DNA of 64,000 nucleotides from an uncultured delta proteobacterium (GCA_963700055.1 CAVOWH010000023.1:64201-128200), one strand, 5' to 3'; positions 4,252-44,075 are shown, numbered from the stretch's first letter. The notes: a model not told the origin generated them from the letters alone. Translations and numbers: made by a program.

Positions 4252-5706
4252 CAATACTGTTCACTTAATAAAAAATTCGTGCTATCCTACTCCAACTCTA
4301 ACCGGGAGGTGGGCGTATGGCACGAACAATCGCAGAGCTCCCCAGAGGGAGCCGGATAACGGACTACATCAGTCTTGGGTTGATTGCCAAGGTATTTCCA
4401 CGGGAGAAGCTGCAATCGGTTTTGGCCGAAACAGGCAAAGAAAGCCTCCGGCAGCGGGAACTGCCAGCACACGTGGTGATTTACTATGTGATTGCGCTGG
4501 CTCTTTACATGAACAGCTCCTACCGCGAGGTTCTGCGCTGTCTGTTGGAGGGTGTCCAATGGTTGCAACTGCATCCGGGTGGTATCAAAGTGACTGGCAA
4601 ATCGGGCATTTCCAAAGCCCGCAGCCGACTGGGATCGGAGCCGATGCGGCGGTTGCATGATCAGACGGTCCGACCGATCGCCACGGCTGAGACACGCGGG
4701 GCGTTTTACCGCCAGTGGCAGATAGTGAGCATTGACGGAGCCACACTGGATGTCGCCGATGAGATCAGTACTGCGAAGACCTTCGGCCGTCCCGGGGCGA
4801 GCCGAGGAGCAAGTGCGTATCCGCAAATTCGGTTTGTTTCGCTGGTTGAAAACGGCACCCACGTTTTGTTCGGAACTCAGGTGGGAGCTTGCCGCTGCAG
4901 TGAAATTGCTCTGGCGCGTCAGACCATCACGCATCTGCGAACCGGGATGTTGTGTTTGGCAGACCGTAACTTCTTTAGCTATGAGCTTTGGCAACAGGCT
5001 CGGGCGACGGGCGCTGAGCTGCTGTGGCGGGTCAAAAAGAACCTGCGCTTGGCCTGCGAGCAGCGTTTGCCCGACGGTTCGTTTCTGAGCCGCATCTATG
5101 CTTCGCCGAGAGATCGCAGGCACCAGAGAAATGCTGTGCTCGTGCGCGTGATCGAGTATCGGCTGGAGGGGGTAGAGCAAAGCGAGCCCATCTATCGGCT
5201 GCTGACGAGCATTTTGGACCCTCAACAGGCACCGGCTCAGGAGCTGGCGGCGCTCTATCACGAACGCTGGGAGATTGAGACCGCCCTTGATGAGTTCAAG
5301 ACGCATCTGCGCGGAGCCCAGATTGTTTTGCGCAGCAAGACCCCGGAGCTGGTCTACCAGGAGTTCTATGGTTTGATGATGGCGCATTTTGCCATCCGGG
5401 GCCTGATGCACGAAGCGGCCCTGAAGGCCGATGAGGACCCAGACAGGTTGTCGTTCTTGCACGCCGTGCGGGTTATGCGCCGCAAACTGCCTTTGTCCAG
5501 CGCTATTCCCCCCTGCGGGGTGGATCGCTTTCCATGAGGCGGTCTTACAAGAAATCTTGCAGGAGCGAGTGGTTTCCAGTCGCAATCGGAGTATTCCGCG
5601 AGGCGTCAAGCGCAAAATGAGCAAATTTCCGCTGCGGAAACGGCATGCAAAATTGAAGTCCGTCTGTGTAGAAAAGTGCATTCAAATAATAAAGTGAACA
5701 GTATTG
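4252..5706 (+). mobile_element. IS4-family insertion sequence, 1455 bp
   Basis: Perfect 15-bp terminal inverted repeats CAATACTGTTCACTT (4252-4266 and 5692-5706). 10-bp target duplication GAGCTACTCC (4242-4251 and 5707-5716). Confidence 0.96.
4317..5537 (+). CDS. IS4-family DDE transposase; probable C-terminal extension in the +1 frame to 5697
   Basis: DDE motifs SIDGA and LADRNF, and YHERWEIE (YREK-like). Enclosed by the IS4 inverted repeats. Confidence 0.93.
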   Translation: MARTIAELPRGSRITDYISLGLIAKVFPREKLQSVLAETGKESLRQRELPAHVVIYYVIALALYMNSSYREVLRCLLEGVQWLQLHPGGIKVTGKSGISKARSRLGSEPMRRLHDQTVRPIATAETRGAFYRQWQIVSIDGATLDVADEISTAKTFGRPGASRGASAYPQIRFVSLVENGTHVLFGTQVGACRCSEIALARQTITHLRTGMLCLADRNFFSYELWQQARATGAELLWRVKKNLRLACEQRLPDGSFLSRIYASPRDRRHQRNAVLVRVIEYRLEGVEQSEPIYRLLTSILDPQQAPAQELAALYHERWEIETALDEFKTHLRGAQIVLRSKTPELVYQEFYGLMMAHFAIRGLMHEAALKADEDPDRLSFLHAVRVMRRKLPLSSAIPPCGVDRFP

Positions 5707-12274: not shown

Positions 12275-13699
12275 CTAAAGGGGGCTACGGCGCGCTGCCG
12301 CAGGCGGCCGCAGCGAGAGACCATATTTTTTGAGCTTCTTGTAAAACAGCGAGCGATGGATGCCCAGCATTTGGGCCGCACGGGCTTTGTTGAATTCCGC
12401 GGCTTCCAGAGCCCGCCGCAGGGCTTCCTTCTCGGCCGAGTGCTGGACCTGCTTGAGTGGCTCGGGGGCCGGAGTGCCTGGCCGCTTGCCCTTCTGCAAT
12501 AGATAGCGAGGCAGATCGGAAAGATCCACCCGGTCATGCTCGGCATAGTGCACGGCCCGCTCCAAGACGTTGGAAAGCTCGCGGACATTGCCGGGCCAGG
12601 CGTAACTCCTCAGGGCATCCTCGGCCTCCGAGCTCAGGACCACCTCTGCCAGGCCACAATCTTGACCGATCTGCTGAAGCAGGTGGCGGGCGATGGGCAG
12701 AATGTCCTCTTGGCGCTCCCGCAGGGGAGGTATCTGCAGGGTGATGACGTTCAGTCGGTAAAACAGATCGGTCCGGAAACGGTTTTCGGCAAGCATGTTC
12801 TCCAGGTTGTGGTTGGTCGCCGCCAGCAGACGAAAATCGGATTTGACCAAGGAAGTGCCGCCGACCCGTTCGAAGTCCTTTTCCTCCAACACCCGCAACA
12901 GCTTCGGCTGCATCTCGAGCGGCAGATCGCCGATTTCATCCAGAAACAAGGACCCGTGGTGGGCCAGTTCGATCTTGCCGGGCTTTCCGGTCGCCTTGGC
13001 GCCGGTGAAGGCCCCCTTGTCGTAGCCGAAGAGCTCGGATTCGAACAGCTCCCGGGGAATGGCCGCACAGTTCACGCGCACGAAGGGATGAAACTTGCGC
13101 GGGCTGGCGTTGTGAACGGCCTGGGCGAAAAGTTCCTTGCCGGTTCCGGACTCGCCCACGATCACCACCGGCAGACTTGTAGCGGCGGCTTTGATGGCCT
13201 GCCATTTCAATGCCGTCATGGCCTTGCTCGCTCCAACGATGCTGTCCATGGTGTAGCGGGTCGAACGCAGGGAGAGCAGTTCATTCTCGTAAAGGTGGAC
13301 CTTCGATTCCAAGAAGGAGACCTTCTCCGCCAGGCGGCTGGCCGTGCTCGCGCTGTCGAACAGCACCAGGCCCGCGACGGCGATCACACGGCCATCTTCC
13401 TTGATCGGGACCCGGTGGACCAGAAAGCCGTGCTCCTTGAATTGATGCGGATAGTTGATTTCCATCTGACCGGTCTTGGCCACGATGTGCAGGCGCGTGT
13501 TGGCGACCACGTCGGTGGCGTGTTTGCCGATCTCCGCCCGGGGGTCGATGTCGAGGAAGCGGGCATAGGTGTCGTTGATGTAGATGATGCGGCCTTCGTG
13601 GTCGGAGATGATGACGCCGATCTGCAAATTATCCACAATTTTCTTGAAGAAATCCAGACGGTGAACAGGCGAATCAGGGGGGACCGCCGCAGTCTCCAT
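12275..13699 (-). CDS. Sigma-54-dependent transcriptional activator (PAS-AAA+-Fis HTH)
   Basis: GESGTGKE, ESELFGYDKGAFTGA, LFLDEIG, WPGNVREL and a C-terminal HTH. Confidence 0.95.
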   Translation of the reverse strand: METAAVPPDSPVHRLDFFKKIVDNLQIGVIISDHEGRIIYINDTYARFLDIDPRAEIGKHATDVVANTRLHIVAKTGQMEINYPHQFKEHGFLVHRVPIKEDGRVIAVAGLVLFDSASTASRLAEKVSFLESKVHLYENELLSLRSTRYTMDSIVGASKAMTALKWQAIKAAATSLPVVIVGESGTGKELFAQAVHNASPRKFHPFVRVNCAAIPRELFESELFGYDKGAFTGAKATGKPGKIELAHHGSLFLDEIGDLPLEMQPKLLRVLEEKDFERVGGTSLVKSDFRLLAATNHNLENMLAENRFRTDLFYRLNVITLQIPPLRERQEDILPIARHLLQQIGQDCGLAEVVLSSEAEDALRSYAWPGNVRELSNVLERAVHYAEHDRVDLSDLPRYLLQKGKRPGTPAPEPLKQVQHSAEKEALRRALEAAEFNKARAAQMLGIHRSLFYKKLKKYGLSLRPPAAARRSPL

Positions 13700-13729
13700 G
13701 CGTACCTCCAAAGTCTCTTTCTGTAGACA

Positions 13730-13747
13730 TGTCTCAATTTTGAGTCT
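13730..13747. promoter_or_regulatory. Palindromic site, candidate enhancer (UAS) for the adjacent activator
   Basis: TGTCTCAATTTTGAGTCT, about 125 bp upstream of the sigma-54 promoter. Confidence 0.5.
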
Positions 13748-13869
13748 TATCAACTCGTATACACTTCGATCCGGAGGGAATCAAGGGTGATTAATGGGCA
13801 CCCAATAACAAATTGAAATATATAGATATGGTTGTCCATATCGAAACCTTTAAGATTTTCTCCGCGGAA

Positions 13870-13885
13870 TGGTACGCTATTCGCT
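13870..13885 (+). promoter_or_regulatory. Sigma-54 -24/-12 promoter
   Basis: TGGTACGCTATTCGCT has GG-N10-GC spacing, lies about 80 bp before the ligase start and is divergent from a sigma-54 activator. Confidence 0.7.
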
Positions 13886-13963
13886 ATAAAACCAGCCGGC
13901 AGGTCTCCGCATCGGGGTTGGATCCTCTTTCTTTCATCCACTGAGATTTTCGAGGAGAAGCGG

Positions 13964-15511
13964 ATGAACATCGGATCCCTGTTTTCCAGGCACGCCAAAT
14001 ACCGTCCCGATCATCTGGCGGCCGTCTTCGGCGCGCGGCGCCTGACCTTTCTGCAGTTCAACCGCGAAATCAACCGCATAGCCAACGCCCTGCTGGCCCT
14101 CGGGGTGAACAAAGGCGAGAAGATCGCCACCCTCCTTCCCAACTGCATGGAGCTTCTGGAGGTTTATTGGGCCTGCGCCAAGATCGGGGCCGTGGTGGTG
14201 CCCTTGAGCACCTTGCTGCGGGAGCAGGCCGTCGTCGCCCTGCTCAACGACGCCGATGCCGTGATGCTGGTGACAAACTCCGGCTTTGCCGTGGCCGTCG
14301 AGTCCGTGAAGGCCGAGCTGCCGGGGATCGCGCACGACCGTTATCTCCTCACTGACGGGCAACGCAACGGCTTCCGGGACTACCATGGGCTGAAGGCGGC
14401 AGCCAGCGACCAAGAGCCCGAAGCCGAAACGGTCGCGGATGATGATCCCTTCAACATCATGTACAGCAGCGGGACCACCGGTCTTCCGAAAGGAATCGTT
14501 AACACCCACCGCATCCGCGCGGCCTACGCCACCTCCTTCGCAGCGGCCTTCCGCATGACGCCCGAAAGCATCACCATGCACGGCGGCGCGATCGTATTCA
14601 ACGGCGCCTTCGTGGACCTCATGCCGGCCGTTTTCACGGGCGGGACGTACATTCTGCTGCCCCAGTTCGACCCCGGAGACTACATTCGAACCATCGCCCG
14701 CGAACGCGTCACGCATGTCATCATGGTGCCCTCTCAGATCGTCGCCGTGCTCAACCATCCCGCCTTCTCCGCCGATGCCCTCAGCTCGCTCGAAATGATC
14801 TTGGCGCTCGGCGCACCCTTGCACGGCGAGCACAAGGAGCGGCTCAACCGGCTTCTCCCCGGCCGCTTTTATGAACTTTATGGCCTGACCGAGGGGTTCG
14901 TGACGGTTCTGGATAAGAACGATTATGCCTGGAAGCCGGGTTCGGTCGGCGCGCCGCCTCCATTTTTCGAAATGTGCATCCAGGATCCCGACGGCAATCC
15001 CCTGCCGCCCGGCGAAATCGGCGAGATCTGCGGCCGCGGCCCTATTCTCATGCCGGGATACTACAAGCGCCCCGATCTGACCCGGCAGGCCGTCCGGGAA
15101 GGGTGGCTGCACTCCGGCGACCTGGGGTACATGGACGAAGACGGGTTTCTCTATCTGGTCGACCGCGTGAAAGACATGATCATCTCCGGCGGGGTCAACG
15201 TCTACCCGCGGGACATCGAGGAGGTGGTCGTCCAGCATCCGCGCGTGCGGGAGGCGGCCGTCTTCGGCGCGGCGCACGACAAGTGGGGCGAAACCCCTGT
15301 GGCTGCCGTCATTTTGAAGCAGGCCGGCTCGATCACGGCCGATGCGCTCAAGGGCTGGATCAACGAGCGGGTCGCCGCCAAGTTTCAGCGCGTGTCCGAC
15401 GTCATGATTCTGGACGATTTTCCCCGCAATGTGGCCGGCAAGATCCTCAAGCGCGACATGCGGGAGCGCTACCGGCGGGGGTCATCGAGGCTGAAAGCCT
15501 CTACCACATAA
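13964..15511 (+). CDS. Acyl-CoA synthetase (AMP-forming), long-chain-fatty-acid-CoA ligase family
   Basis: YSSGTTGLPKG, YGLTE, SGDLG, DRVKDMIISGG, PRNVAGKI. Confidence 0.93.
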   Translation: MNIGSLFSRHAKYRPDHLAAVFGARRLTFLQFNREINRIANALLALGVNKGEKIATLLPNCMELLEVYWACAKIGAVVVPLSTLLREQAVVALLNDADAVMLVTNSGFAVAVESVKAELPGIAHDRYLLTDGQRNGFRDYHGLKAAASDQEPEAETVADDDPFNIMYSSGTTGLPKGIVNTHRIRAAYATSFAAAFRMTPESITMHGGAIVFNGAFVDLMPAVFTGGTYILLPQFDPGDYIRTIARERVTHVIMVPSQIVAVLNHPAFSADALSSLEMILALGAPLHGEHKERLNRLLPGRFYELYGLTEGFVTVLDKNDYAWKPGSVGAPPPFFEMCIQDPDGNPLPPGEIGEICGRGPILMPGYYKRPDLTRQAVREGWLHSGDLGYMDEDGFLYLVDRVKDMIISGGVNVYPRDIEEVVVQHPRVREAAVFGAAHDKWGETPVAAVILKQAGSITADALKGWINERVAAKFQRVSDVMILDDFPRNVAGKILKRDMRERYRRGSSRLKASTT

Positions 15512-15596
15512 AAACAAACTTCTTTACACCATAGGCTGGCGCCAAGCGCCACACCGGCTGTTACGAAGCCATCCAGAAAACCAAGGAGGAAAAGCC

Positions 15597-16685
15597 ATGA
15601 AGACACTGAAAAAGGGAATCATTCTTTCGTTGGCCTGCGCCTGTATGCTGGCAATGGTCGCCGCGGATGCCGCGGCCCAGCAGAAAGCCGCCGAGCAGAA
15701 AATCGTCCTTCGGGTGCAAAGCGCCTTTGCCGCCGTCCTGCCGGCCTTGGGCGAATGCTTGCCGTTCTTCAAGGAGTACGTCGATGCGGCCAGCGACGGC
15801 AGCATTGAGGTGAAATACTTCGACCCGGGCAAGCTCGTGCCGGCGTTCGAGATCCACGATGCGGTTTCTACAGGTAAAATTGAAGCCGGCTACACCGCGC
15901 CGGTCTACCTCGCCGGAAAGCTTCCGGCGACCGAGCTGTTCACGTATATCCCCTTCGGCGTCGATGCCCCGGCCTATCTTGGCTGGTTCTATAGCGGCAA
16001 CGGCATGAAGCTCTACCAGGAAGCATACGACAGTGCCGGGTACAACTTGAAAGCGTTTGTCTTCACCATGCTGGCGCCCGAGACAGCCGGCTGGTTTCGC
16101 AAGGCTATCGACAAGCAGGAAGACCTGAAAGGCATGGCCATTCGTTATCCGGGCCTGCCTGGGAAAGTGCTGCAGAAGCTCGGGGCCTCTATCAGCATGG
16201 TCCCCGGCAGCGAAATCTACCAGTCGCTCGAAAAGGGCGCCATCGACGGCACCGAGTTTTCCAACCCGGCCATCGACCAGAAACTCGGCTTCTTCAAGGT
16301 CGCCAAGTACAACTACTTCCCGGGCTGGCACCAGCCGGCCACCAACCTGGAGCTCGTGATCAACAAGGATACCTGGAACAAGATGAGTCCGCGGCAAAAG
16401 GCCGTCATCGAGCTGGCGGTCCGGGCCGTGACCACCTTCACCCTGGCGCGGTCATCGGCGGTGCAAGGCGCGGCCATCCTCGAGAATGCGAAAAACGGTG
16501 TGACCAATGCGGTCTTTTCAAAAGAGCTGCTGGACCTGTTCCGCAAGACCTGGAATGAGGTGATTGCCGAGGAGACGGCCAAGGATCCCATGCTGAAAAA
16601 GATCTGGGACGACTACAAGAGCTATGAAGCCTCCTACAACCCATGGGCTTGCATCGGGTACCTGACGAAACCCGACTGCAAATAG
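15597..16685 (+). CDS. dctP: TRAP transporter substrate-binding protein (DctP, TakP-like)
   Basis: Signal peptide; AGWFRKAI...DLKG, LEKGAIDGTEF, YYFPGWHQP-like motif (YNYFPGWHQP). Confidence 0.92.
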   Translation: MKTLKKGIILSLACACMLAMVAADAAAQQKAAEQKIVLRVQSAFAAVLPALGECLPFFKEYVDAASDGSIEVKYFDPGKLVPAFEIHDAVSTGKIEAGYTAPVYLAGKLPATELFTYIPFGVDAPAYLGWFYSGNGMKLYQEAYDSAGYNLKAFVFTMLAPETAGWFRKAIDKQEDLKGMAIRYPGLPGKVLQKLGASISMVPGSEIYQSLEKGAIDGTEFSNPAIDQKLGFFKVAKYNYFPGWHQPATNLELVINKDTWNKMSPRQKAVIELAVRAVTTFTLARSSAVQGAAILENAKNGVTNAVFSKELLDLFRKTWNEVIAEETAKDPMLKKIWDDYKSYEASYNPWACIGYLTKPDCK

Positions 16686-16693
16686 GGGCGATT

Positions 16694-17224
16694 ATGAATG
16701 CGCGAGCTGAAGGTAAAGGGCAAACCAATGCCATCGACCGGTTCATTCTGCGATTCGGGCACTTCCTGAGCTGGGCCAATTTTCTCCTCATCTTCGTAAT
16801 CGTTCTTCAGGTGGTGCTGCGCTACGGCTTCGGCCGCGGCATGGTGGCCCTGGAGGAGCTGGAATGGCACCTTTACGCTGTGGCCTTCATGTTCGGGCTT
16901 TCCTATGCAGTGGTCACTGACGCGCATGTGCGGGTTGACCTGATATCGAGTCGCATGAGCCCTACCACCCGGGCCTGGGTGGAGATCGTGGGCCTTGCGG
17001 TTCTGCTGCTGCCCTTCATCGTCATCGTCGTCATCTATGGGTGGGAGTTCTTCCTGTCGTCCTGGGTGCGCCATGAACGCTCGCTCGCCCCCATGGGCCT
17101 TCCCTACCGCTGGGCGATAAAGGCCGTCATCCCGCTGAGCTTCATCCTGTTCGGGCTGGCGGCCCTGACGCGCCTGATCCGTACCATCCAACAGCTAAAG
17201 GGGGCAAGCGATGCTGCTCAATGA
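16694..17224 (+). CDS. dctQ: TRAP transporter small permease
   Basis: Four TM segments; QVVLRY, EELEWHLY, HVRVD. Confidence 0.92.
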   Translation: MNARAEGKGQTNAIDRFILRFGHFLSWANFLLIFVIVLQVVLRYGFGRGMVALEELEWHLYAVAFMFGLSYAVVTDAHVRVDLISSRMSPTTRAWVEIVGLAVLLLPFIVIVVIYGWEFFLSSWVRHERSLAPMGLPYRWAIKAVIPLSFILFGLAALTRLIRTIQQLKGASDAAQ

Positions 17225-18599
17225 CTATCTGGTCGTGGCGATGTTCGTCACGTTCATCGCTTTCATGCTGACGGGCTATCCGATTGCCTTCTGCCTGGCG
17301 GGCACGGCCGTCATTTTCACCGTTGCCGGTCACCTGTTCGACGTTTATCTGGGTACCGCCACCGGTGTGGACTTCAACTACTTCGGCATCGTCGTCACCC
17401 GGATTTTCAACACCATGTCCAATTGGGTGCTTATTTCACTGCCCCTGTTCATCTACATGGGGCTGATGCTCGACAAATCCGGCATGGCCGAGAAGCTGAT
17501 GATGTCCGCCCAGGAGTTGTTCGGCAAGCTGCGCGGCGGCCTGGCCATCACGGTGGTCCTGATCGGGGTGGTCATGGCGGCCTCGACCGGAATCGTCGGC
17601 GCCTCCGTGGTGATGCTGGGGCTCCTGACCATCCCCGCCATGCTGCATCAAGGCTACAACAAACGTCTGGCGGTGGGGGTGGTGGCGGCTTCCGGGACCT
17701 TGGGGATACTGATCCCGCCCAGCATCATGCTGGTGGTGATGGGGGACCAGGTGGGCATCTCCGTGGGCGATCTCTTCATGGGGGCCTTCATCCCGGGCTT
17801 CATCCTGGCCGGGCTTTACATGGTGTACCTCGTCATCATTTGCCTGGTGCGGCCGGATGATGCCCCGCTGCCCAAGGACTTGCGGCCGATCACCCGGCAG
17901 GTCCTGAAAGAGGCGATGAAAAGCATCGTCCCGCCGTCGCTGCTGGTACTTTCAGTTCTGGGATCGATCTTCGCCGGCATTGCGACCGTCACCGAAGCCA
18001 GCGGCGTAGGAGCCCTTTTCGCGACGATCCTCGCCTATGTCAACAAAAAGCTCGACATGAGGGTCATGCGGGAGGTGCTCTATGCAACCTTCAAAACCAA
18101 CGCTTACATTTTCGGCATCCTGATCGGCGCCACCTGCTTCGCCCTGGTTCTGAGAGGCTTAGGCGGCGACGAGTTCATCGCCCGCCTGCTCAAGTCCCTA
18201 CCCTTCGGCCCCATGGGGATACTCTGGTTTATCGTGTTTGTGGTTTTCCTGCTGGGTTTTTTCCTGGACTGGATCGAGATCTGCTTCATCATCCTGCCCC
18301 TGATCACGCCGGTGGTAGCGGAGCTCAATTTCAGCGTTAATGGATTCGGGGTGGTAAGCGAGCCTAAGATGGTCTGGTTCCTGCTGATCATCGCGGTTAC
18401 CCTGCAGACCTCGTTCCTGACGCCGCCGGTAGGGTTCTCGCTGTTTTATCTCAAGGGCATCGTGCCCAAGGAAATCACCCTGGGCGACATCTACCGCGGC
18501 ATCATTCCTTTCGTGGTTCTGCAGATGTTGGGGGTGGCCATCATTTCCATCTGGCCGGAGCTGGTCACTTGGCTGCCGGCCGTGGCGTATCGAAAATGA
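17211..18599 (+). CDS. dctM: TRAP transporter large permease
   Basis: GTLGILIPPSI and FLTPPVG; highly hydrophobic. Confidence 0.94.
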   Translation: MLLNDYLVVAMFVTFIAFMLTGYPIAFCLAGTAVIFTVAGHLFDVYLGTATGVDFNYFGIVVTRIFNTMSNWVLISLPLFIYMGLMLDKSGMAEKLMMSAQELFGKLRGGLAITVVLIGVVMAASTGIVGASVVMLGLLTIPAMLHQGYNKRLAVGVVAASGTLGILIPPSIMLVVMGDQVGISVGDLFMGAFIPGFILAGLYMVYLVIICLVRPDDAPLPKDLRPITRQVLKEAMKSIVPPSLLVLSVLGSIFAGIATVTEASGVGALFATILAYVNKKLDMRVMREVLYATFKTNAYIFGILIGATCFALVLRGLGGDEFIARLLKSLPFGPMGILWFIVFVVFLLGFFLDWIEICFIILPLITPVVAELNFSVNGFGVVSEPKMVWFLLIIAVTLQTSFLTPPVGFSLFYLKGIVPKEITLGDIYRGIIPFVVLQMLGVAIISIWPELVTWLPAVAYRK

Positions 18600-18624
18600 T
18601 TGAATAGGTTTAAGGAGGCTGCAT

Positions 18625-19419
18625 ATGGAGATCCGCAATTCGGTGGCGCTCATCACCGGAGGGGCCAACGGCATCGGCGAATGCTGCGCCAAGAGTCTGG
18701 TGCGGGCCGGCGCACGGGTGGCGATCTGCGACATCGTGCAGGAGCAGATCGACCGGGTGGTCAAAGAGATCAGGGACTCCGGCGGCGAGGCCGTCGGCAT
18801 CCAGGGCAACGTGGTCAAGGAGGCCGACCAGGCCCGGTTCATTCAGGAAACGGTCAAGGCGTTCGGCCGGCTTAACATCGTGATCCCTTCGGCCGGCATC
18901 ATCCGCGACGGCACGGTGGTGACCACCGACCGCGAAAGCGGCAAGGTCGTGCGCAAGATGAGCCTGGAGCAATGGCAGCAAGTGATCGACGTCAACCTCA
19001 CCGGCACCTTCCTCACCGTGCGCGATGCCATCGAGGCCATGGTAAACGGCGGCTGGGAGGGGATCATCTGCCTGATGTCCTCGATCAACAAGGAGGGCCA
19101 GGTCGGCCAGCTCAACTACAGCGCCACCAAGGCGGCCGTGGCCCTGATGCCGAAGATCCTGGTGGGTGAGTTCATGATCCGCAAGATCCGCAACATCCGG
19201 GTGGTGGCCATCGCGCCGGGCTATGTGAACACCGCGATCCTGAAAGGCATGAACCAGGAAGCGCTCGCGGCCATCCTGAAGGATGTCCACAGGGGAAAGC
19301 TGGTCGAGCCGGAAGAAATTGCGTCCTGCATCATGCACTGCATAGAGAACGATGCCATCAACGCGACTACCATCGAGGTGACCGGCGGGCTGACCTACGC
19401 CCGCAGCCGGGCGAAATGA
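18625..19419 (+). CDS. SDR oxidoreductase (FabG/PhaB-like 3-oxoacyl reductase)
   Basis: TGGANGIG, AGIIRDG, catalytic YSATK. Confidence 0.9.
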   Translation: MEIRNSVALITGGANGIGECCAKSLVRAGARVAICDIVQEQIDRVVKEIRDSGGEAVGIQGNVVKEADQARFIQETVKAFGRLNIVIPSAGIIRDGTVVTTDRESGKVVRKMSLEQWQQVIDVNLTGTFLTVRDAIEAMVNGGWEGIICLMSSINKEGQVGQLNYSATKAAVALMPKILVGEFMIRKIRNIRVVAIAPGYVNTAILKGMNQEALAAILKDVHRGKLVEPEEIASCIMHCIENDAINATTIEVTGGLTYARSRAK

Positions 19420-19526
19420 ATTCAATTTACACTTACGCTGGCACTATGCAGCTCAACCGTCAGACGCTGTTGGGGAGAATCCCCGAGTTCGGGTAGACGC
19501 TTTTTCAAAAAAAAAGGAGGTGAAAA

Positions 19527-21755
19527 ATGGGAAAACGGTCTGTATTTAAGGGATTATCGCTGTCGGCACTTGGCGCTGCGCTTGTTATTGGGCTTGCGTC
19601 ATGGGCGCTGCCGCAGCTTGTGCAGGCGGTTCAGCCGGCAGAGCAGGCTTATGATCAATATATCGGCCACTTCGGCGCCAATAACGTCAAGCCGCCGTAC
19701 CTCGGGAAAATCAGCGAGAATTACTATGACGGTAACACCGACGATTTGCTGACCGCCGGGCTCGGCAAGACGGGTCTGGCCGCCGGTGCGCCGCTTTTTG
19801 TTGATTCGCTGAAACCCACATCAGCCGAGCTGCGCCGCAACGCCATCCACACCAACTACCGTGCCGTGCTCGACATCACGGCCAAAGGTGGCTACGGGAA
19901 GCTTTACGGCCCCAACCTCACCAATGACGGACAAGACATCCTCGGCGAAGGCAAGATCCCAGGCTGGGAATACATCGCTTACTCGGACGACGGCAGTGGC
20001 CGCAAGAATGTAACGCTGATGGTCCAGGTGCCGGATTCGTTTGACGTCAAGCGACCCTGCATCGTCACGGCGACCTCGTCGGGCTCGCGCGGAATCTACG
20101 GGGCCATCGGCGCCTCGGGCGAGTGGGGGCTCAAGCAGGGCTGCGCCGTTGCTTACACCGACAAGGGCACCGGCAATGGCCTGCACGACCTAAAGGAAAA
20201 CAGTGTCGGACTGATCGACGGCACGCGCACCAAAGCCGTCACGGCCGGCGACGATTCGATCTTCACCGCGGATATCACCGAAGCCGAGCGAGTTGCCTTC
20301 GACAAGGCCACCCCTTATCGCGCGGCTTACAAGCACGCGCACTCGCAGCAGAACCCCGAAAGCGATTGGGGGCAGAACACCCTGCAGGCCATTCGTTTCG
20401 CGTTCTATGTCCTGAACAAAACCTATGGCAAAGAAGGACCGCACGGCAGCACGCGTGTGGTGCTGACTCCGAAGAACACGATCGTCATCGCCTCCGGTAT
20501 CTCGAATGGCGGCACGGGTGGGTTGCAGGCTGCCGAGCAGGACCTGTGGGGCCTGATCGACGGTGTCGCTGTCACCGAGCCCAATGCCCAGCCCACTGAT
20601 ACCCGCAAGCTGAAGATCGTCCAGGGAACTACTCTCCAGCCAACGATCGGAAAGCCACTACTCGACTACTTCACGGTCGCCAACCTTTACCAGCCCTGCG
20701 CGGCGCTGGCCATTCCTCCAGAGGACACGGCAGCCTATGGGGTGATAAATCCGGTGATTATTGCAGGCGGAAGCGAGCGCTGCGCCAGCCTGGCCGAGAA
20801 AAGACTGGTGAGCGGAGCGACGGTTAAGGAGCAGGCACAGAGCGCGCTTTCAAAGCTACGTGGCTATGGCTGGCTGGCGGACAGCAATGCGTTGCAGCTT
20901 TCGCACTACGCGTTTGCGAGCAACGCCATCGCTGTGACGTACAGCAACGCGCATGGCCGGGTGAGCGTGCTCGACAACCTTTGCGGGTACAGCTTTGCCA
21001 ATACCAACCCAGCGGGCGATCCGATCCTGCAGGACGAAGCGTTCGTCAAACGCTCGTTCTCTTTCGGCAACGGCGTGCCGCCCACCTCGGGGCCATTCCC
21101 TCTAACGGGAGCCGTGAACCTGATTTACAACGATGCGGCAAACGGCGGAGGAGTGGGCAAGCGCGACATCCTGGCTTCATCGCCTTCCACCGGCCGACTG
21201 GATTTAGCCTTCGATGGCGCCGTCTGCCACCGCAACCTAATTGAAGGCCAGGATATCACTACCGGCAACCCGCTCTCCAACACAGATGAAGATTACTCGC
21301 AACGGATTCAGGAAGGGCTCGACGAAGTGGTGCTCACAGCCCGCCTGCGCGGCAAGCCGGCGATCATCGTGCACGGCCGGTCGGATACTCTGGTTCCGGT
21401 CAACCACTCCTCGCGCGCCTACTATGGGACGAATCAGCTCGTCGAAGGAGCCGGCCACCGCCGGCTGAGCTACATCGAGGTGACCAATGCCCAGCATTTC
21501 GACGCCTTCCTGGGCTTGCCGGGCTATGATGAGCGTTTCATCCCGCTGCACGTCTATCTGATCCGCGCGCTCAATAAAATGTACGACCATCTGACAAGCG
21601 GGGATGTGCTGCCGCCGAGCCAGGTGGTGCGCACCGTTCCCCGCGGGGCCGGTGCACCGCCGATCGTGGCAGCCAACGTGCCACCGATCGCGGATGACCC
21701 GCTGCCGGGCGACAGGATTCTGTTCAAGAAGCAGACTCTCTACATCCCGGATTAG
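19527..21755 (+). CDS. Secreted D-(-)-3-hydroxybutyrate oligomer hydrolase
   Basis: Signal peptide. Family motifs YDGxxDDLLTAGLGKTGL, ELRRNAIHTNYRA, SSGSRGIYGAIG, KHAHSQQNPE, ISNGG, HGRSDTLVPVNHSSR, VTNAQHFDAF. Confidence 0.88.
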   Translation: MGKRSVFKGLSLSALGAALVIGLASWALPQLVQAVQPAEQAYDQYIGHFGANNVKPPYLGKISENYYDGNTDDLLTAGLGKTGLAAGAPLFVDSLKPTSAELRRNAIHTNYRAVLDITAKGGYGKLYGPNLTNDGQDILGEGKIPGWEYIAYSDDGSGRKNVTLMVQVPDSFDVKRPCIVTATSSGSRGIYGAIGASGEWGLKQGCAVAYTDKGTGNGLHDLKENSVGLIDGTRTKAVTAGDDSIFTADITEAERVAFDKATPYRAAYKHAHSQQNPESDWGQNTLQAIRFAFYVLNKTYGKEGPHGSTRVVLTPKNTIVIASGISNGGTGGLQAAEQDLWGLIDGVAVTEPNAQPTDTRKLKIVQGTTLQPTIGKPLLDYFTVANLYQPCAALAIPPEDTAAYGVINPVIIAGGSERCASLAEKRLVSGATVKEQAQSALSKLRGYGWLADSNALQLSHYAFASNAIAVTYSNAHGRVSVLDNLCGYSFANTNPAGDPILQDEAFVKRSFSFGNGVPPTSGPFPLTGAVNLIYNDAANGGGVGKRDILASSPSTGRLDLAFDGAVCHRNLIEGQDITTGNPLSNTDEDYSQRIQEGLDEVVLTARLRGKPAIIVHGRSDTLVPVNHSSRAYYGTNQLVEGAGHRRLSYIEVTNAQHFDAFLGLPGYDERFIPLHVYLIRALNKMYDHLTSGDVLPPSQVVRTVPRGAGAPPIVAANVPPIADDPLPGDRILFKKQTLYIPD

Positions 21756-21974
21756 CCGCAGGAGGCGCTATTTTCCAAGGAGGTCGATTTCTTTTTATCA
21801 TGGTGGGAGCGGCATCTTGCCGCGATCTCATCGTGGCTGGAGCCTACTTCGCCGAAGTCGCTTTGGCTACGAAGGCCGGAAGCCTCTCCCACCAAAAGCG
21901 AACTTTCTCGCGGATCTAGTGGTACCGAGCACTATGACCCGCTTAGAAGTAGACGACCAATCGGAGGAAAGCGT

Positions 21975-23903
21975 ATGAAGCGCAACAAGCTCGTCACCGC
22001 CGACGTGGCGGTCAACATGGTCCGCGACGGGTGGACATTAGGCGTGGAGGGCTTCGTCGGAAGCGGCACGGCGGACGAACTCTGCCTGGCCATGGAGCAT
22101 CGCTACCTGGAGACGGGCGGCCCCAAGAACCTGACGGTGATCCACTCCTCGGGCCCGGGGGATGCCGGCATGCGCGGGATCAACCGCATGGCCCATCCGG
22201 GCATGTTCAAACGGGTGATTTCGGGGCACTACGGCCTGGTGCCCCAGATCGGCAAACTTGCGCTGGCGAACGATTTCGAGGCCTACAACCTGCCGCAGGG
22301 CATCCTGACCAATTTCTACCGGGCCGTCGCCGCCCGCCGGCCGGGTGTCTTCACCAAGGTGGGCCTGGGCACCTTCGCCGACCCGCGCATCGAGGGTGGC
22401 AAGATCAGCCCCAAGGCCGTGGAAGACATCGTCGAGATCGTCACGATCGGCGGCGAGGAGTGGCTCTTCATGAAGGCCTTTCCGGTGGACTGCGTTTTCA
22501 TCCGCGGGACCACGGCCGACACCCGCGGCAACGTCACCATGGAGCGCGAGGCTTTGATCGTGGATTCGCTCGCCATGGCCATGGCGGCGCGCAACTCCGG
22601 CGGCATCGTGATCGTCCAGGTGGAGCGCGTGGCCAATCCGGAAACCCTCAACCCGCACGCCGTCATCGTACCGGGCATCCTCGTGGACTACGTGGTGATC
22701 GCGCGGCCGGAGCACCATATGCAGACCTTCGGCGGCCAGTTCCGGCCGGAACTGTGCGGCGAGATCCGGGTGCCGCTGACCTCCATGAAGCCGCTGGCCC
22801 TCGACGAGCGCAAGGTCATGGCGCGGCGTGCCAACCTCGAACTCCGGCCGTATGACGTAATCAACCTCGGCATCGGCTACCCCGAGGCGGTGGCGGCGGT
22901 GGCGAACGAGGAGAACATCCTGAGCTACCTCACCATGACCGTGGAGCCCGGGATCATCGGCGGCTTGCCGCTGGGCGGTCTCGACTTCGGTTCCTCCATC
23001 AACCCGGAGGCCGTTGTCAGCATGCCCGACCAGTTCGACTTCTACGACGGCGGGGGACTGGACCTGACCTGTCTCGGCTTTGCCCAGGTGACCGCCGAGG
23101 GCAACGTCAATTCCAGCAAGTTCGGGCCGCGTGTCGCCGGCTGCGGCGGCTTCATCGACATCAGCCAGAACGCCAAGCGGGTGCTCTTCATGGGGACCTT
23201 CACCACCGGCGGGATCCAGCTGGCCGTGGAAGACGGCCGTATGAAGATCCTCTCGGAGGGCAGGATCAAGAAGTTCGTCAAGGGCTGCGACCAGATCACC
23301 TTCTGCTCGCAGTTCGCCGGCCCCCAGGGCCAGGAGGTCTTCTACATCACCGAGCGCTGCGTCTTCAAGCTCAGCGACGGACAGATCGAGCTGATCGAAG
23401 TCGCCCCCGGGATCGACCTCGAAAAAGATATCCTGGCGCACATGGAGTTCCGCCCCGTGATCCGCCAGGTGGCCCCCATGGACCCGCGGCTGTTTGCCGA
23501 GAACTCGATGGGAATTCGCAAGGAGTTCCTCCTGAAGGAGCTGAAAACCCGGGTGCGCTATTCGGCCGACCGGAACCTGTTGCGCTTGAATTTCAACGGG
23601 CTTGAGATCGACAGCACCGAAGACGTCGAGAACATCAAGAAGATCGTCGAGGACGTCTGCACCGCCGCCGGCCGGAAAGTGAACACCGTGGTCAACTACG
23701 ACGCCTTCAAGGTCAGCGACGGCCTTCTCAACGATTACCTTGAGATGGGACAGTACATCATCCAGAAATTCTATCGCAAGGTCGCCCGGCATACCACCAG
23801 CAAGGAGGCCATGGCCAAGTTCACTGAGCAGTTTCAGGAGCGGAGCCTGGCGGTGAATATGTTCGCTTCCGAGGAGGAGGCTGTTAAATTCGTGCTCGAA
23901 TAA
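21975..23903 (+). CDS. Family I CoA-transferase (propionate/acetate CoA-transferase, YdiF/Pct-like) with a C-terminal extension
   Basis: NLPQG, NLGIGYPE, catalytic VEPG, QFDFYDGGGLD, GCGGFIDISQ, YITERCVF. Confidence 0.92.
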   Translation: MKRNKLVTADVAVNMVRDGWTLGVEGFVGSGTADELCLAMEHRYLETGGPKNLTVIHSSGPGDAGMRGINRMAHPGMFKRVISGHYGLVPQIGKLALANDFEAYNLPQGILTNFYRAVAARRPGVFTKVGLGTFADPRIEGGKISPKAVEDIVEIVTIGGEEWLFMKAFPVDCVFIRGTTADTRGNVTMEREALIVDSLAMAMAARNSGGIVIVQVERVANPETLNPHAVIVPGILVDYVVIARPEHHMQTFGGQFRPELCGEIRVPLTSMKPLALDERKVMARRANLELRPYDVINLGIGYPEAVAAVANEENILSYLTMTVEPGIIGGLPLGGLDFGSSINPEAVVSMPDQFDFYDGGGLDLTCLGFAQVTAEGNVNSSKFGPRVAGCGGFIDISQNAKRVLFMGTFTTGGIQLAVEDGRMKILSEGRIKKFVKGCDQITFCSQFAGPQGQEVFYITERCVFKLSDGQIELIEVAPGIDLEKDILAHMEFRPVIRQVAPMDPRLFAENSMGIRKEFLLKELKTRVRYSADRNLLRLNFNGLEIDSTEDVENIKKIVEDVCTAAGRKVNTVVNYDAFKVSDGLLNDYLEMGQYIIQKFYRKVARHTTSKEAMAKFTEQFQERSLAVNMFASEEEAVKFVLE

Positions 23904-23938
23904 AATTCTGCGCGGCCTGAGGGCCGCGCAGAATTTTA
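23901..23938. terminator. Strong hairpin after the CoA-transferase
   Basis: TAAAATTCTGCGCGGCC-tgag-GGCCGCGCAGAATTTTA. Confidence 0.75.
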
Positions 23939-24023
23939 TATTCAATAAAGACAAGGAAAGGACCTGTAAAAAAAAGCGACTTTTTTGCTGCTTGCGATAG
24001 GGGATAACTTTGGGAGGTGAAGC

Positions 24024-25286
24024 ATGAAAAAACGAAGGCTCGGACGCGGGGTGGCCATCGTCGGCGCCGGGATGACGAAGTTCGGCATGTTCAAGGACCG
24101 GGACTCCAAGGATCTGTTCGCGGAGGCCTTCACCGAGATGCTCGCCTCGGTGGACAAGGGAGTCGATCCGGCCGACATCGATGCGCTTTATCTCGGCAAT
24201 TTTTCCAATGACTATTTCACCCGCCAATCCCACTGGGGGCCGATCATCGCCGAGATCATCGGCCATTCCCCGAAGCCGGCCACCCGTACGGAAGGCGCCT
24301 GCGCTTCGAGCGCGCTCGCTTTCCGCGAGGGGGTGTTCGCCATCGCCTCCGGCTTTTATGATTTGGTGCTGGTAGGCGGGGTCGAGGACATGTCCAAGCG
24401 CACCACCGAGGAGGTGGCCGAGGGGCTGGCACTGGCGACGGTTCCCTACGAGGGCCGCGTGGGGTTCACCTTCCCGGGCGTGTTCGGGGCCGCGGCGACC
24501 GCCTATTTCGCCAAGTACGGCGCCAATCGTGAACACCTGATGAACGTCACGATCAAAAGCCATCTCAACGCACCCTTGAATCCAAAGGCCCAGTTCCCAT
24601 TGACGATCCGGGACATGATGCAGGCCAAGATGGAGAGTCTCAAGAAACGAAGCCAACCCCTGCCCGACTGGAAGGACGAGAAGGATTTCCTAAGGGACAC
24701 GGCGGCCAATCCGGCGGTCGCCTGGCCGATCCATCTTTTTGACTGCTGCCCGATTAGCGACGGGGCGAGCTGTCTTCTGCTGGCGGGGGAGGACATCGCC
24801 CGCAACTTCACCGATGATCCCATCCACGTCGTCGGACTGGGCCAGGGCAGCGGCCGCGGCTTCCACGCCAGCGCGGACATGACCTATTTCGAAGCCACCC
24901 GCTACGCGGCTCAGGAGGCCTACGGCATGTCCGAGCTGACGTCCAAGGACATCCAGTTTGCCGAGGTTCACGACTGTTTTTCCATCGCCGAGCTGCTGCA
25001 CATCGAGGACCTCGGCTTCTTCAAGCCGGGCGAGGGATATAAGGCCGTGGCCGATGGGGCGACCCGTCTGGACGGCCCCAAGCCGATCAACACATCCGGC
25101 GGGCTTAAATGCAAGGGGCATCCGGTAGGCGCGACCGGGACCTCCCAGCTCTACGAGGTCTGGACCCAGCTGCGGGGCAAGGCCGGCAAGCGTCAGGTCC
25201 CCATCAAGGATTTGCGCATCGGCGGCGCCCACAACCTGGGGGGCACCGGCGGGACCTGCACGTTCACCATCCTGGAAAGGAGATAG
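24024..25286 (+). CDS. Thiolase-domain protein (SCP-x/archaeal-type acetyl-CoA acyltransferase)
   Basis: EGACASS, CCPISDGA, EVHDCF, KGHPVGATG. Confidence 0.9.
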   Translation: MKKRRLGRGVAIVGAGMTKFGMFKDRDSKDLFAEAFTEMLASVDKGVDPADIDALYLGNFSNDYFTRQSHWGPIIAEIIGHSPKPATRTEGACASSALAFREGVFAIASGFYDLVLVGGVEDMSKRTTEEVAEGLALATVPYEGRVGFTFPGVFGAAATAYFAKYGANREHLMNVTIKSHLNAPLNPKAQFPLTIRDMMQAKMESLKKRSQPLPDWKDEKDFLRDTAANPAVAWPIHLFDCCPISDGASCLLLAGEDIARNFTDDPIHVVGLGQGSGRGFHASADMTYFEATRYAAQEAYGMSELTSKDIQFAEVHDCFSIAELLHIEDLGFFKPGEGYKAVADGATRLDGPKPINTSGGLKCKGHPVGATGTSQLYEVWTQLRGKAGKRQVPIKDLRIGGAHNLGGTGGTCTFTILERR

Positions 25287-25290
25287 GGCC

Positions 25291-25707
25291 ATGGCGGCAA
25301 GACCGTTCAACGATATCGCCTACAATCAATTTTTGAACGAGGAGAAGCTGATGGGTTGCCGCTGCCGGAAATGCGGCGAGCGCTACGTGCCGCCCCGGCC
25401 GCTGTGCGTCAAATGCTTTTCTCAGGAATTGGAATGGGTGGGAATGAAGGGGCGCGGCCGACTGGTGGCCTTCACCTGCATCTCGATTGCCCCGCCCTTC
25501 ATGATGGCCCAGGGCTACGATCGCAAGCATCCCTACATCTCCGGAGTCGTGGAGCTGGACGAGGGCGGCCGGGTGGACGCGCGCATCGAGGGCGTAGACC
25601 CCCTGAAGCCCGAATCAATCCGCATCGGCATGCCCATGAAGGCCGCCTTCATCCACCGCAAGGATGTCGAAGTGCCGGAAACCTACCTGGCTTTCTGGCC
25701 GGTCTGA
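25291..25707 (+). CDS. DUF35 Zn-ribbon/OB-fold thiolase partner
   Basis: CRKCG...PPRPLCVKC followed by an OB-fold; directly after the thiolase. Confidence 0.9.
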   Translation: MAARPFNDIAYNQFLNEEKLMGCRCRKCGERYVPPRPLCVKCFSQELEWVGMKGRGRLVAFTCISIAPPFMMAQGYDRKHPYISGVVELDEGGRVDARIEGVDPLKPESIRIGMPMKAAFIHRKDVEVPETYLAFWPV

Positions 25708-25858
25708 CGGTCCAATGAAGCGTGCAGCCATTAACTGACTCCACATCGCAACATATAAAGCAGGAAAGCAATACCGTTTGCAGTTCTATATGGTCCTTTA
25801 TTTTGAGGGCTTGCTGCGCTATTGTTAAATTGGTATGAATTTTTGCCTGGAGGTTTCC

Positions 25859-26086
25859 ATGAGACAACTAAAGCGTATAACAGTTGACCCCCAGGTCATG
25901 GGCGGAAAACCATGTATACGAGATTTGCGTGTGACGGTTGGCACCATCGTCGGGTTAATTGGAGCCGGCAGAACCACAGAGGATGTTCTCGAAGCCTATC
26001 CCTATTTGGAACGCGAGGACATTCTGGAGGCTATTTCCTACGCTGCATGGCGGGCTGAGGAAATAGAGGTCGCGCTGGCGTTGTGA
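25859..26086 (+). CDS. DUF433 antitoxin
   Basis: RITVDPQVMGGKPCIRDLRVTV...YPYLEREDI. Confidence 0.92.
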   Translation: MRQLKRITVDPQVMGGKPCIRDLRVTVGTIVGLIGAGRTTEDVLEAYPYLEREDILEAISYAAWRAEEIEVALAL

Positions 26087-26451
26087 TCAGGATTATCGTC
26101 GATATGAACCTGCCGCCTCGCTGGGTGCCGGTGCTGAAAGCCGAAGGCTGGGATGCGGTGCATTGGTCCTCAATTGGCACACCGGGAGCGGCCGATGCCG
26201 ATATCATGAAATATGCGAAGCGTGGTGGCTACACAGTCTTGACTCATGATCTTGATTTCGGAGCTATACTTGCTGCCACGGCCGGTAACGCACCCAGCGT
26301 GATACAAGTTCGAACGCAGGATGTTTTTCCGGAAGCTATTGGGCGGCTGGTCACCGCAGCGATCCACCAATTCAAGAACGAGATCGAAAAGGGCGTACTG
26401 ATATCAGTTGATGAAAACCGATCCCGGGCCCGTCTGCTTCCCTTGGAATGA
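26083..26451 (+). CDS. DUF5615 PIN-like toxin
   Basis: IIVDMNLP, AADADI, LTHDLDFG; 4-nt overlap with DUF433. Confidence 0.9.
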   Translation: MIRIIVDMNLPPRWVPVLKAEGWDAVHWSSIGTPGAADADIMKYAKRGGYTVLTHDLDFGAILAATAGNAPSVIQVRTQDVFPEAIGRLVTAAIHQFKNEIEKGVLISVDENRSRARLLPLE

Positions 26452-38353: not shown

Positions 38354-38522
38354 GAACGTTCTTCCTCCCCAACTGAAAAGCAGAAGGCACCCCATAGCAG
38401 AAACAGCGATCAATTACAAGCGCGGTCGAAACCCGGCGGGCTGGGACCGGGCCTTGGCCCTGCTGAACGGACCGAGGCCTATCGGATTGACAAAAGCAAC
38501 GGCCTGGGATACCTCACCCCCC

Positions 38523-39353: not shown

Positions 39354-39416
39354 AACGTTTCGCTGGAGGGGGTCGCAATGACCGGGCACTGCGATCTTGG
39401 CGGAATCAATGCGCGC

Positions 39417-41573: not shown

Positions 41574-41913
41574 TGTGATCCGGCGGATAGCGGTGAAGAT
41601 TGCTGCCGCGCTGGCATTCCGGCTCTGAGGGTCAACTCAAGCGGTCTATTTTTTCCCGAGCCGTACAAGGCTATTCCAATTTGGATCAAGAATAAAAATA
41701 CACAAAAATAGGAATTAAAATTATTACCAGATGAAAACCAATCATGCAAGAATAATTTTCAGCCCAGCAATTGATCTAATATTTTGCATATATTGATAAT
41801 TCTTACTAAGTTGCCTTTTGGATAGCCTGGACTATTTTATGAGGATACAACAACCAGTGTGGCCGAGGAGTCGGCGGTCACAATAAGACCTGCGTTTGAA
41901 AGGAGTATCAGCG

Positions 41914-42852: not shown

Positions 42853-42861
42853 ACCGGTCGG

Positions 42862-43980: not shown

Positions 43981-43983
43981 AAT

Positions 43984-44073
43984 GGGCATAGAGCATAGGG
44001 CAGAGGGCATAGGGCAGAAGCATAAAAAAGGTTTTTCTTACTCTATGCGCTATGCCCTCTGCCCTCTGCTTCT
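43984..44073. repeat. Inverted arrays of heptamer tandem repeats
   Basis: GRGCAWA five times at 43984-44018, then the complementary TATGCGC/TATGCCC/TCTGCCC/TCTGCTT at 44044-44071. Confidence 0.85.
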
Positions 44074-44075
44074 GG

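Follow-up and report, generated by a model that had tools for sequence, protein, structure and literature searches.

The ato system of Escherichia coli consists of AtoC, AtoDA, AtoE and AtoB, of which AtoC is a response regulator. What is known of the breakdown of polyhydroxybutyrate (PHB) and related polyesters in anoxic sediments comes mainly from a small number of fermenters and from bulk determinations. In Ilyobacter, the pathway of PHB and 3-hydroxybutyrate (3HB) fermentation reportedly runs at the level of coenzyme A (CoA) thioesters, a view that is said to go back to Janssen and Schink in 1993, and to our knowledge no gene cluster has been assigned to it. Anaerobic fermentation of PHB and 3HB has been described for Ilyobacter delafieldii and I. 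polytropus (cited in PMC10096456). In Pseudomonas aeruginosa, the catabolism of (R)-3HB is controlled by PA2005 (HbcR) and RpoN, i.e. by an enhancer-binding protein (EBP) (Lundgren et al. 2015, cited in PMC13390443, PMC4894688). Ralstonia eutropha PhaY1 and PhaY2 are D-(-)-3-hydroxybutyrate oligomer hydrolases of the Burkholderiales (PMC3430594), and the oligomer hydrolase of Alcaligenes faecalis is extracellular (cited in PMC13642032). Here, we compare with them a gene cluster at positions 12275-25707 of a stretch of 64,000 nucleotides (hereafter the window) from an uncultured delta proteobacterium (GCA_963700055.1, CAVOWH010000023.1:64201-128200).

The cluster consists of a single activator gene on the minus strand and nine co-oriented genes on the plus strand. 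An initial annotation of this DNA had listed the same divergent set, and open reading frame (ORF) calls together with Pfam and NCBIfam searches recovered all ten families in their places. We consider it probable that the nine genes form a sigma-54-dependent operon with which a sulfate reducer degrades short-chain 3-hydroxy acids, (R)-3HB being the most likely of them; the substrates, the reaction directions, transcription as a single unit and the cellular site of the hydrolase are all predictions from sequence. In the proposed mechanism, a PAS-domain activator would sense the substrate or a derivative of it, bind a candidate ACATGT-centred palindrome and open a -24/-12 promoter. An exported esterase of the PF10605 family would cut 3HB dimers or oligomers, either in the periplasm or extracellularly. 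Other organisms, by means of their PHB depolymerases, are the probable source of these oligomers. 3HB would be taken up by a tripartite ATP-independent periplasmic (TRAP) transporter. 3-Hydroxybutyryl-CoA could then be formed either by an ATP-dependent ligase or by a YdiF-type CoA-transferase, which would draw CoA from acetyl-CoA and thus save ATP. An NAD-type short-chain dehydrogenase/reductase (SDR) would convert it to acetoacetyl-CoA, from which a thiolase acting with a DUF35 protein would produce two acetyl-CoA.

The activator gene (12275-13699, minus strand) encodes a protein of 474 amino acids (aa) in which Pfam recognizes a PAS sensor domain (30.9 bits), the Sigma54_activat AAA+ domain (PF00158, 227.8 bits), an AAA lid and a Fis-type HTH_8 domain (46.4 bits). 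A GAFTGA loop is located at residues 229-234, and the AAA+ part matches the AtoC family of NCBIfam with 322.9 bits. The likely start is the ATG at 13699, which follows GGAGG, within an open frame that extends to 13753. In a same-genus genome, G020, an activator ortholog with 77% identity is likewise divergent from the operon. On the plus strand, 80 nt before the ligase ATG, the element TGGTACGCTATTCGC (13870-13884) has two mismatches to the consensus TGGCAC-N5-TTGC and retains the GG and the GC. By itself this match proves nothing, because two-mismatch matches are no rarer than chance in the window (44 found versus 74 expected). A GG-N10-GC element with sigma-54-like flanks is, however, present upstream of all ten orthologous operons examined, namely those of the same-genus G020, of G385, G025 and G035 and of six further loci; the G020 counterpart reads TGGTATGGATTTCGC. 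It is this conservation, together with the position of the element, that carries its predicted status as a sigma-54 promoter. As rpoN is also present in the genome (447 bits, cut-off 277), the sigma-54 control proposed in the initial annotation is well borne out. The palindrome AGACATGTCT (13725-13734), located 136 nt upstream of the -24 element and recognized by eye, is a candidate site for the activator. An ACATGT-centred palindrome was seen, also by eye, at the matching place in G020 and in six of eight more distant regions (G035, G025, L202, L213, L224 and L238). A TGGCAC motif at 19439 was considered as an internal sigma-54 promoter and dismissed, its GC being one base out of register, and nothing canonical for sigma-54 was seen when the spacers before the CoA-transferase and the thiolase were read by eye. 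A simple sigma-70 scan returned matches at chance level (4 versus 4.3 expected), as did a terminator scan (16 versus 12.5).

The control of the cluster appears to follow the logic described for PA2005/RpoN in P. aeruginosa, where a sigma-54 EBP turns on genes for 3HB use. The key enzyme of P. aeruginosa is reportedly the free-acid dehydrogenase BdhA/HbdH, whereas the present cluster encodes a ligase, a CoA-transferase, a FabG-like SDR, a thiolase-DUF35 pair, a TRAP transporter and a hydrolase that is predicted to be exported, and belongs to a sulfate reducer. The ato system resembles the cluster in that a sigma-54 activator is combined with a thiolase and a CoA-transferase of family I, the substrate being a C4 keto acid or a short-chain acid. 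It differs in the PAS sensor, in the fused YdiF-type transferase with an extra C-terminal domain, in the SCP-x/DUF35 type of thiolase, in the TRAP transporter and in the addition of SDR, ligase and hydrolase.

The hydrolase gene (19527-21755, plus strand) encodes a PF10605 3HB-oligomer hydrolase family protein, the sole copy in the genome. Its match to the profile amounts to 991.5 bits (cut-off 27) and extends over positions 14-688 of the 688 in the profile. The single GxSxG box of the protein is GISNG at residues 324-328, in which S326, N327 and G328 are invariant in an alignment of 22 sequences (61-90% identity), so that S326 is the presumed catalytic nucleophile. The N-terminus MGKRSVFKGLSLSALGAALVIGLASWALPQLVQA, a basic, hydrophobic segment that ends in VQA and is followed by VQP, reads by eye as a Sec signal peptide. 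An AF2 model built from 22 sequences has a mean pLDDT of 62.1 and is too uncertain for the geometry of a catalytic triad; Foldseek searches with this low-confidence model returned weak matches to alpha/beta-hydrolases only (feruloyl esterase, tannase and MHETase, TM 0.3-0.4). No relative in the PDB was found by sequence (0 hits at E 0.01), and the PF10605 family is a gap in structural coverage. The protein agrees with the oligomer hydrolases of Burkholderiales, including PhaY1, which we take to be a PF10605 member, in family, in full length and in the single GxSxG box, and its export signal fits the extracellular members. What sets it apart from them is its context, a catabolic operon of an anaerobe that is proposed to work at the CoA level.

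The nearest parallel gene set that we found is located in a metagenome-assembled genome (MAG) labelled as the betaproteobacterial genus Noviherbaspirillum (L011, 7314-19639). Here, genes for an EBP, a FabG-like SDR (TIGR01830, 308 bits, above cut-off), a PF10605 hydrolase, a Liv-type ABC transporter with a Peripla_BP_6 protein and a ligase with 59% identity to that of the window all point in one direction; a TRAP transporter takes the place of the ABC transporter in the window. The first three of these genes (EBP, SDR and hydrolase) are also found in loci L032 and L047. A tblastn search with the cluster genes, which is not a scan of all ORFs, revealed no CoA-transferase or thiolase-DUF35 homolog in the 22-kb L011 locus. 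By its gene content, L011 is an independent instance of the combination of sigma-54 activator, FabG-like SDR, oligomer hydrolase, transporter and ligase.

The substrate of the operon was approached through its transporter and enzymes. The TRAP trio is encoded side by side on the plus strand by dctP (15597-16685, PF03480), dctQ (16694-17224, PF04290) and dctM (17211-18599, PF06808; TIGR00786, 287 bits, cut-off 268). The ORF of the small permease DctQ opens at 16643, and a start at the ATG at 16694 removes its overlap with dctP. The best solved relatives of the solute-binding protein DctP, which like the hydrolase carries a signal peptide, are 2hzk/2hzl (deposited as SmoM and presumably the alpha-keto-acid binder TakP), ketoacid-binding and lactate-binding depositions, and unassigned DctP-family proteins, some of which we take to be pyruvate complexes. 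Because of these relatives, the DctP family is considered to take small mono-carboxylates. Orthologs of DctP with 45-52% identity occur in other families of the order, and in eight of nine such loci a 279-aa 3HB-dehydrogenase-like SDR is encoded directly upstream. The three best NCBIfam matches of this SDR are 3HB-dehydrogenase families (about 180 bits, below cut-offs), and for its copy in the present genome (G000, 75% identity) all six of the closest solved relatives are 3HB dehydrogenases.

The CoA-transferase (21975-23903, plus strand) is a fused family I enzyme (PF01144) that aligns with E. coli YdiF (2ahu) over 509 residues (6-514, 438.6 bits). Its Glu324, in a TVE(T/P)G motif, stands opposite chain residue 333 of YdiF, presumably the catalytic Glu333. 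Other solved relatives are acetate/acetoacetate CoA-transferases and succinyl-CoA:3-ketoacid transferases. The C-terminal extension of about 125 aa (residues ~505-642, window positions 23487-23900) has no Pfam match even at E 5. Long-form transferases of about 640 aa are encoded in 123 of 401 genomes of the order (E 1e-100 or better), and we examined 45 such loci (the three closest, 40 picked from the rest and two found through DctP). An orthologous activator adjoins the transferase gene in 18 of them, and in four, each from a different family within the order, genes for PhaR and for a depolymerase of the PhaZ type (PF06850) stand beside it (L118 at 16138-18058, L198, L237 and L238). In G025 and L238, the whole set of activator, 3HB-dehydrogenase-like SDR, TRAP transporter, SDR and thiolase is found near PhaZ/PhaR. 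The ligase (13964-15511, plus strand; 515 aa) is an AMP-forming acyl-CoA ligase (AMP-binding, 277.5 bits) with GAGGAG before its ATG, which we take as the true start; it is the proposed 3HB-CoA ligase. No further Pfam or NCBIfam family is matched above cut-off. Its PDB relatives are of the FadD type, the nearest being feruloyl- and fatty-acyl-CoA synthetases, and in L213 a ligase ortholog with 70% identity directly follows the orthologous TRAP genes. The operon ends with an SCP-x/archaeal-type thiolase (24024-25286, plus strand; Thiolase_N and Thiolase_C_1; PRK06064, 391 bits, cut-off 420) and, after a gap of 4 bp, its presumed partner, a DUF35 protein (25291-25707, plus strand; zf-ChsH2 and OB_ChsH2_C) consisting of a zinc ribbon with two CxxC motifs and an OB fold. 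Taken together, these independent gene associations tie the transporter, the CoA-transferase and the ligase to genes of 3HB and PHB metabolism, and the EBP control of 3HB catabolism in P. aeruginosa provides a precedent.

The same data can be read in favor of another short- or medium-chain hydroxy or keto acid, such as 3-hydroxyvalerate, other 3-hydroxyalkanoates or a 2-oxo acid. In that case the esterase would act on a different ester, and its PHB assignment would be an artefact of the family name. No protein of the cluster reaches a substrate-specific cut-off, the DctP of the G020 operon is merely 32% identical, and both the solved relatives of the ligase (feruloyl- and fatty-acyl-CoA synthetases) and the weak structural neighbors of the hydrolase would suit such a substrate. 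Against this stand the 991 bits of the hydrolase over the full length of PF10605 and three independent associations with 3HB or PHB, i.e. the SDR beside the TRAP genes, PhaZ/PhaR beside the CoA-transferase and the Noviherbaspirillum cluster. We therefore regard a different substrate as unlikely.

A classical route for the same substrate would differ in the role of the SDR. This enzyme, a classical SDR (18625-19419, plus strand) and the proposed 3-hydroxybutyryl-CoA dehydrogenase, carries the motifs TGGANGIG and YSATK. Its second strand ends with Asp36, which by the established cofactor rule for SDRs predicts use of NAD rather than NADP. If it were a free-acid 3HB dehydrogenase, it would form acetoacetate, which would be activated by the CoA-transferase as in ato or SCOT-like systems and cleaved by the thiolase, the ligase being auxiliary. 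The relatives of the CoA-transferase (YdiF, acetate/acetoacetate CoA-transferases and succinyl-CoA:3-ketoacid transferases) would be at home in such a route, and the ato paradigm is likewise sigma-54-activated, in line with the AtoC family match of the activator. However, the SDR scores 230.2 bits on PRK08217 (cut-off 298) and 155 bits on FabG, whereas the 3HB-dehydrogenase families TIGR01963 and PRK12429 give 108.2 and 115.8 bits, below their cut-offs of 307 and 258. Among solved structures, the SDR is closest to the (3R)-hydroxyacyl-CoA dehydrogenase domain of MFE-2 from yeast; FabGs and 3-hydroxyacyl-CoA dehydrogenases of the SDR type come next. In addition, a separate 3HB-dehydrogenase-like SDR is encoded in the clusters of relatives and on another contig (C12) of the present genome, and it is the operon-type SDR that adjoins the thiolase gene in the relatives. 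This makes the classical route quite unlikely; as the initial annotation had proposed, the SDR looks like an enzyme of the CoA or ACP level rather than a free-acid dehydrogenase, while specificity for the (R)- or (S)-form is not readable from its sequence.

Comparison with the operon of G020 separates an older core from later additions. Gene order is the same in both, with identities of 77% for the activator, 83% for the SDR, 81% for the CoA-transferase, 83% for the thiolase and 67% for the DUF35 protein. The G020 operon has a different TRAP transporter, as judged from the 32% identity of its DctP, and it lacks both the ligase and the hydrolase, SDR and CoA-transferase genes being separated by a spacer of 84 bp. 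Since the G020 operon has no hydrolase at this place, the hydrolase of the window occupies the former SDR/CoA-transferase spacer. Hence, as far as gene content tells, the older core is made up of activator, TRAP transporter, SDR, CoA-transferase, thiolase and DUF35 protein. In the course of evolution, the hydrolase was inserted between SDR and CoA-transferase; the TRAP transporter would have been exchanged and the ligase added.

The distribution of the hydrolase points to a foreign origin. Its closest relatives are metagenomic proteins with 90, 83, 82 and 79% identity, followed among named sequences by a 'Desulfobacteraceae bacterium' MAG (75%) and Candidatus Competibacter (71%). Named Burkholderiales sequences are at most 66% identical among the matches listed, although the matches listed in a scan of genome contigs, which is not a census, come mostly from this order. 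A full-length hydrolase was found in none of the 24 other genomes of the genus. One of these, G009, contains a 48-residue C-terminal PF10605 remnant with 69% identity (C47:141710-141853, L083/L084), and none of the cluster genes lies within about 6-14 kb on either side of it; this suggests an earlier gain and loss of the hydrolase in the genus. Among 400 other genomes of the order, 23 encode hydrolase homologs, all with 53% identity or less, and the family is not confined to the aerobic Betaproteobacteria in which, according to the initial annotation, it is mainly characterised. In a tree of 80 rows (matches of more than 600 residues were kept and every second row of 78 external loci was dropped), 18 of 19 sequences from the order form one clade with a support of 98, the 19th being a long-branch outlier. 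The window hydrolase is instead nested, with a support of 99-100, in a clade otherwise made up of sequences labelled Burkholderiales and Competibacter. The GC content at third codon positions (GC3) of the hydrolase gene is 0.74, as compared with 0.89 in both the SDR and the CoA-transferase genes. On these grounds, the hydrolase is best described as a recent foreign insertion, acquired horizontally from a Pseudomonadota-type lineage.

A scan of metagenomes for the hydrolase yielded 18 loci, of which a 5.5-kb contig (L110) alone shares neighbors with the window. It encodes the hydrolase (88% identity), the CoA-transferase (87.5%) and the thiolase (73%), retains the hydrolase/CoA-transferase junction including the spacer and has two additional CoA-transferase subunit genes ahead of the thiolase. 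In L110, a stop interrupts the thiolase frame after about 152 residues (4543-5490); misassembly or decay of the gene may explain it. A contig from a freshwater metagenome of another study spans the SDR-hydrolase junction with about 93% identity. Two joints in DNA runs X2 and X4, one from 19415 to 21975 that lacks the hydrolase and one from 15482 to 21803, are supported on each side by 25-26 letters with 90% likeness and give weak hints only. RNA data (metatranscriptome X20 and the possible RNA run X19) contain only short contigs with 90-95% likeness, which come from relatives and have no bearing on expression; those of X20 map to the SDR, the 5' end of the hydrolase and the CoA-transferase.

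Several of our findings weigh against a 3HB-oligomer operon that includes the hydrolase. The hydrolase is missing from all 45 homologous CoA-transferase loci of other genomes and from the G020 operon, L110 being the only homologous cluster from elsewhere that contains it; because of this absence, the core operon does not need the hydrolase. Absence from homologous clusters is one half of what the initial annotation had named beforehand as speaking against its own proposal, the other half being a lack of co-regulation. Conversely, 20 hydrolase loci from the order that were retrieved with their flanks have no adjoining cluster homologs, apart from a generic activator with 40% identity in one case, and 77 of 80 mainly betaproteobacterial hydrolase loci are devoid of the activator-SDR-hydrolase arrangement. 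The adjacency of PhaZ and PhaR to the CoA-transferase is a minority pattern (4/45), and one of the four loci supplied the PhaZ and PhaR queries. Ligase, SDR, CoA-transferase and thiolase all remain below the cut-off of any substrate-specific NCBIfam model. A hairpin behind the CoA-transferase gene (23900-23939, plus strand) may act as an attenuator, a terminator or an RNA-stabilizing end and could uncouple thiolase and DUF35 protein from the promoter. Finally, a locus on contig C12 could be the real 3HB route of the organism. In this locus (38124-49351, L252), a 3HB-dehydrogenase-like SDR is encoded together with two DctPQM systems, a dehydrogenase of the 3HCDH type and an AMP-ligase, and a CoA_trans gene lies upstream in the opposite orientation; the SDR is 75% identical to the 3HB-dehydrogenase-like SDR in the clusters of relatives. 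The earlier statement that no free 3HB dehydrogenase is needed consequently does not hold for the organism and describes a property of the operon at most. Overall, the interpretation given in the initial annotation is partly supported.

That the hydrolase is a mere passenger, i.e. a recent insertion that is not co-regulated or not functional in its host, with the operon serving as it does in relatives devoid of the hydrolase, is very improbable in our view: its rare and patchy distribution, its lower GC3, the repeat resembling repetitive extragenic palindromic (REP) elements in the downstream spacer and the weak hydrolase-less joint 19415 to 21975 in metagenome contigs would fit this explanation, but the frame of 742 aa is intact and preceded by a strong ribosome-binding site (AAAGGAGGTG), the terminator scan found no terminator-like site between SDR and hydrolase, the hydrolase/CoA-transferase junction is kept in the 88%-identical relative L110, and the SDR-hydrolase junction is bridged in the metagenome of another study.

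The host genome comprises 4.95 Mb and is 99.2% complete. It encodes dsrA (619.6 bits, cut-off 392.85) with a dsrB-like neighbor and aprA (933.8 bits, cut-off 641.75), and because of these genes we consider the host a sulfate reducer, in agreement with the anaerobic life style suspected earlier. A gene for a COX1-family oxidase is also present. A class III polyhydroxyalkanoate (PHA) synthase locus (PhaE-PhaC-GAF-PhaR) indicates that the organism is probably able to make PHA. Neither an extracellular PHB depolymerase of PF10503 nor a PhaZ of PF06850 was found above cut-off, these being the two families searched. We tentatively put forward, as a possibility that falls somewhat short of likely, that the host is a cross-feeding sulfate reducer that lives on 3HB oligomers released by others and has wired a captured Pseudomonadota hydrolase into a CoA-level sigma-54 operon. 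Such an operon would combine ATP-sparing CoA transfer with an NAD-linked (R)-3-hydroxyacyl-CoA SDR and an archaeal-type thiolase-DUF35 pair. With Ilyobacter the host would share the ability to live without oxygen on 3HB that stems from PHB, 3-hydroxybutyryl-CoA being the probable intermediate. Ilyobacter, however, comprises fermenting Fusobacteria known by their physiology and by enzyme assays, whereas the present organism is a sulfate reducer known from its genes alone.

The initial annotation had been aware of no description of this gene set. We likewise found none of such a cluster in an anaerobe in the literature searched, whose coverage excludes most subscription journals, but the parallel set in Noviherbaspirillum narrows the claim. 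The family of each part is known already, as is the logic of EBP-controlled 3HB catabolism and of an oligomer hydrolase upstream of 3HB use. New are the combination of genes, the sulfate-reducing host, the proposed CoA-level enzyme set with thiolase-DUF35 and a long YdiF-type transferase, and the documented insertion of a hydrolase of Pseudomonadota type. Microbes store large amounts of carbon as PHB and related polyesters, which are also sold as bioplastic. If our reading is true, the cluster is a testable genetic module for the sulfate-linked use of PHB fragments, and it would provide a candidate 3HB-specific TRAP binding protein and a sigma-54 sensor that could be used as a biosensor. It would also be a clear case of an operon lengthened upstream in its pathway through horizontal capture of an exported hydrolase. 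Should cross-feeding apply as well, it would define genetically a route for anaerobic, sulfate-linked PHA turnover in sediments. If it is wrong, the cluster is an ordinary operon for short-chain acids with a passenger esterase.

The gaps between consecutive genes from the ligase to the DUF35 protein are 85, -43, -14, 25, 107, 219, 120 and 4 bp, the second being counted from the opening of the dctQ ORF. The 219-bp gap between hydrolase and CoA-transferase contains the REP-like dispersed repeat (21801-21894) with inverted arms of 21 nt. Across 15 other contigs of the genome, its 39-nt core is matched in part 39 times, the repeat is also present in L110, and in metagenome contigs it is marked by a depth spike and many loose ends at 21803 and 21841. 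An ORF of 124 aa (21604-21978) that overlaps the end of the hydrolase gene has no family match in Pfam or NCBIfam and was taken as spurious. The hairpin at 23900-23939 overlaps the stop codon of the CoA-transferase gene and consists of a perfect 18-bp stem and a 4-nt loop followed by UUUUAU (-32.3 kcal/mol, z -7.5); it does not occur in the same spacer of G020.

The borders of the cluster are set by its neighbors, a radical-SAM gene and an unassigned ORF before the activator and a DUF433/PIN-like gene pair after the DUF35 gene. This pair (DUF433/DUF5615, 25835-26451), located directly 3' of the operon, is probably a toxin-antitoxin module at the cluster edge. Farther downstream in the window, an ISL3-family transposase gene (55614-56815) is split into two overlapping ORFs and is probably broken, and a Cas7 gene (61625-62647) close to the window end suggests a CRISPR-Cas locus beyond it.

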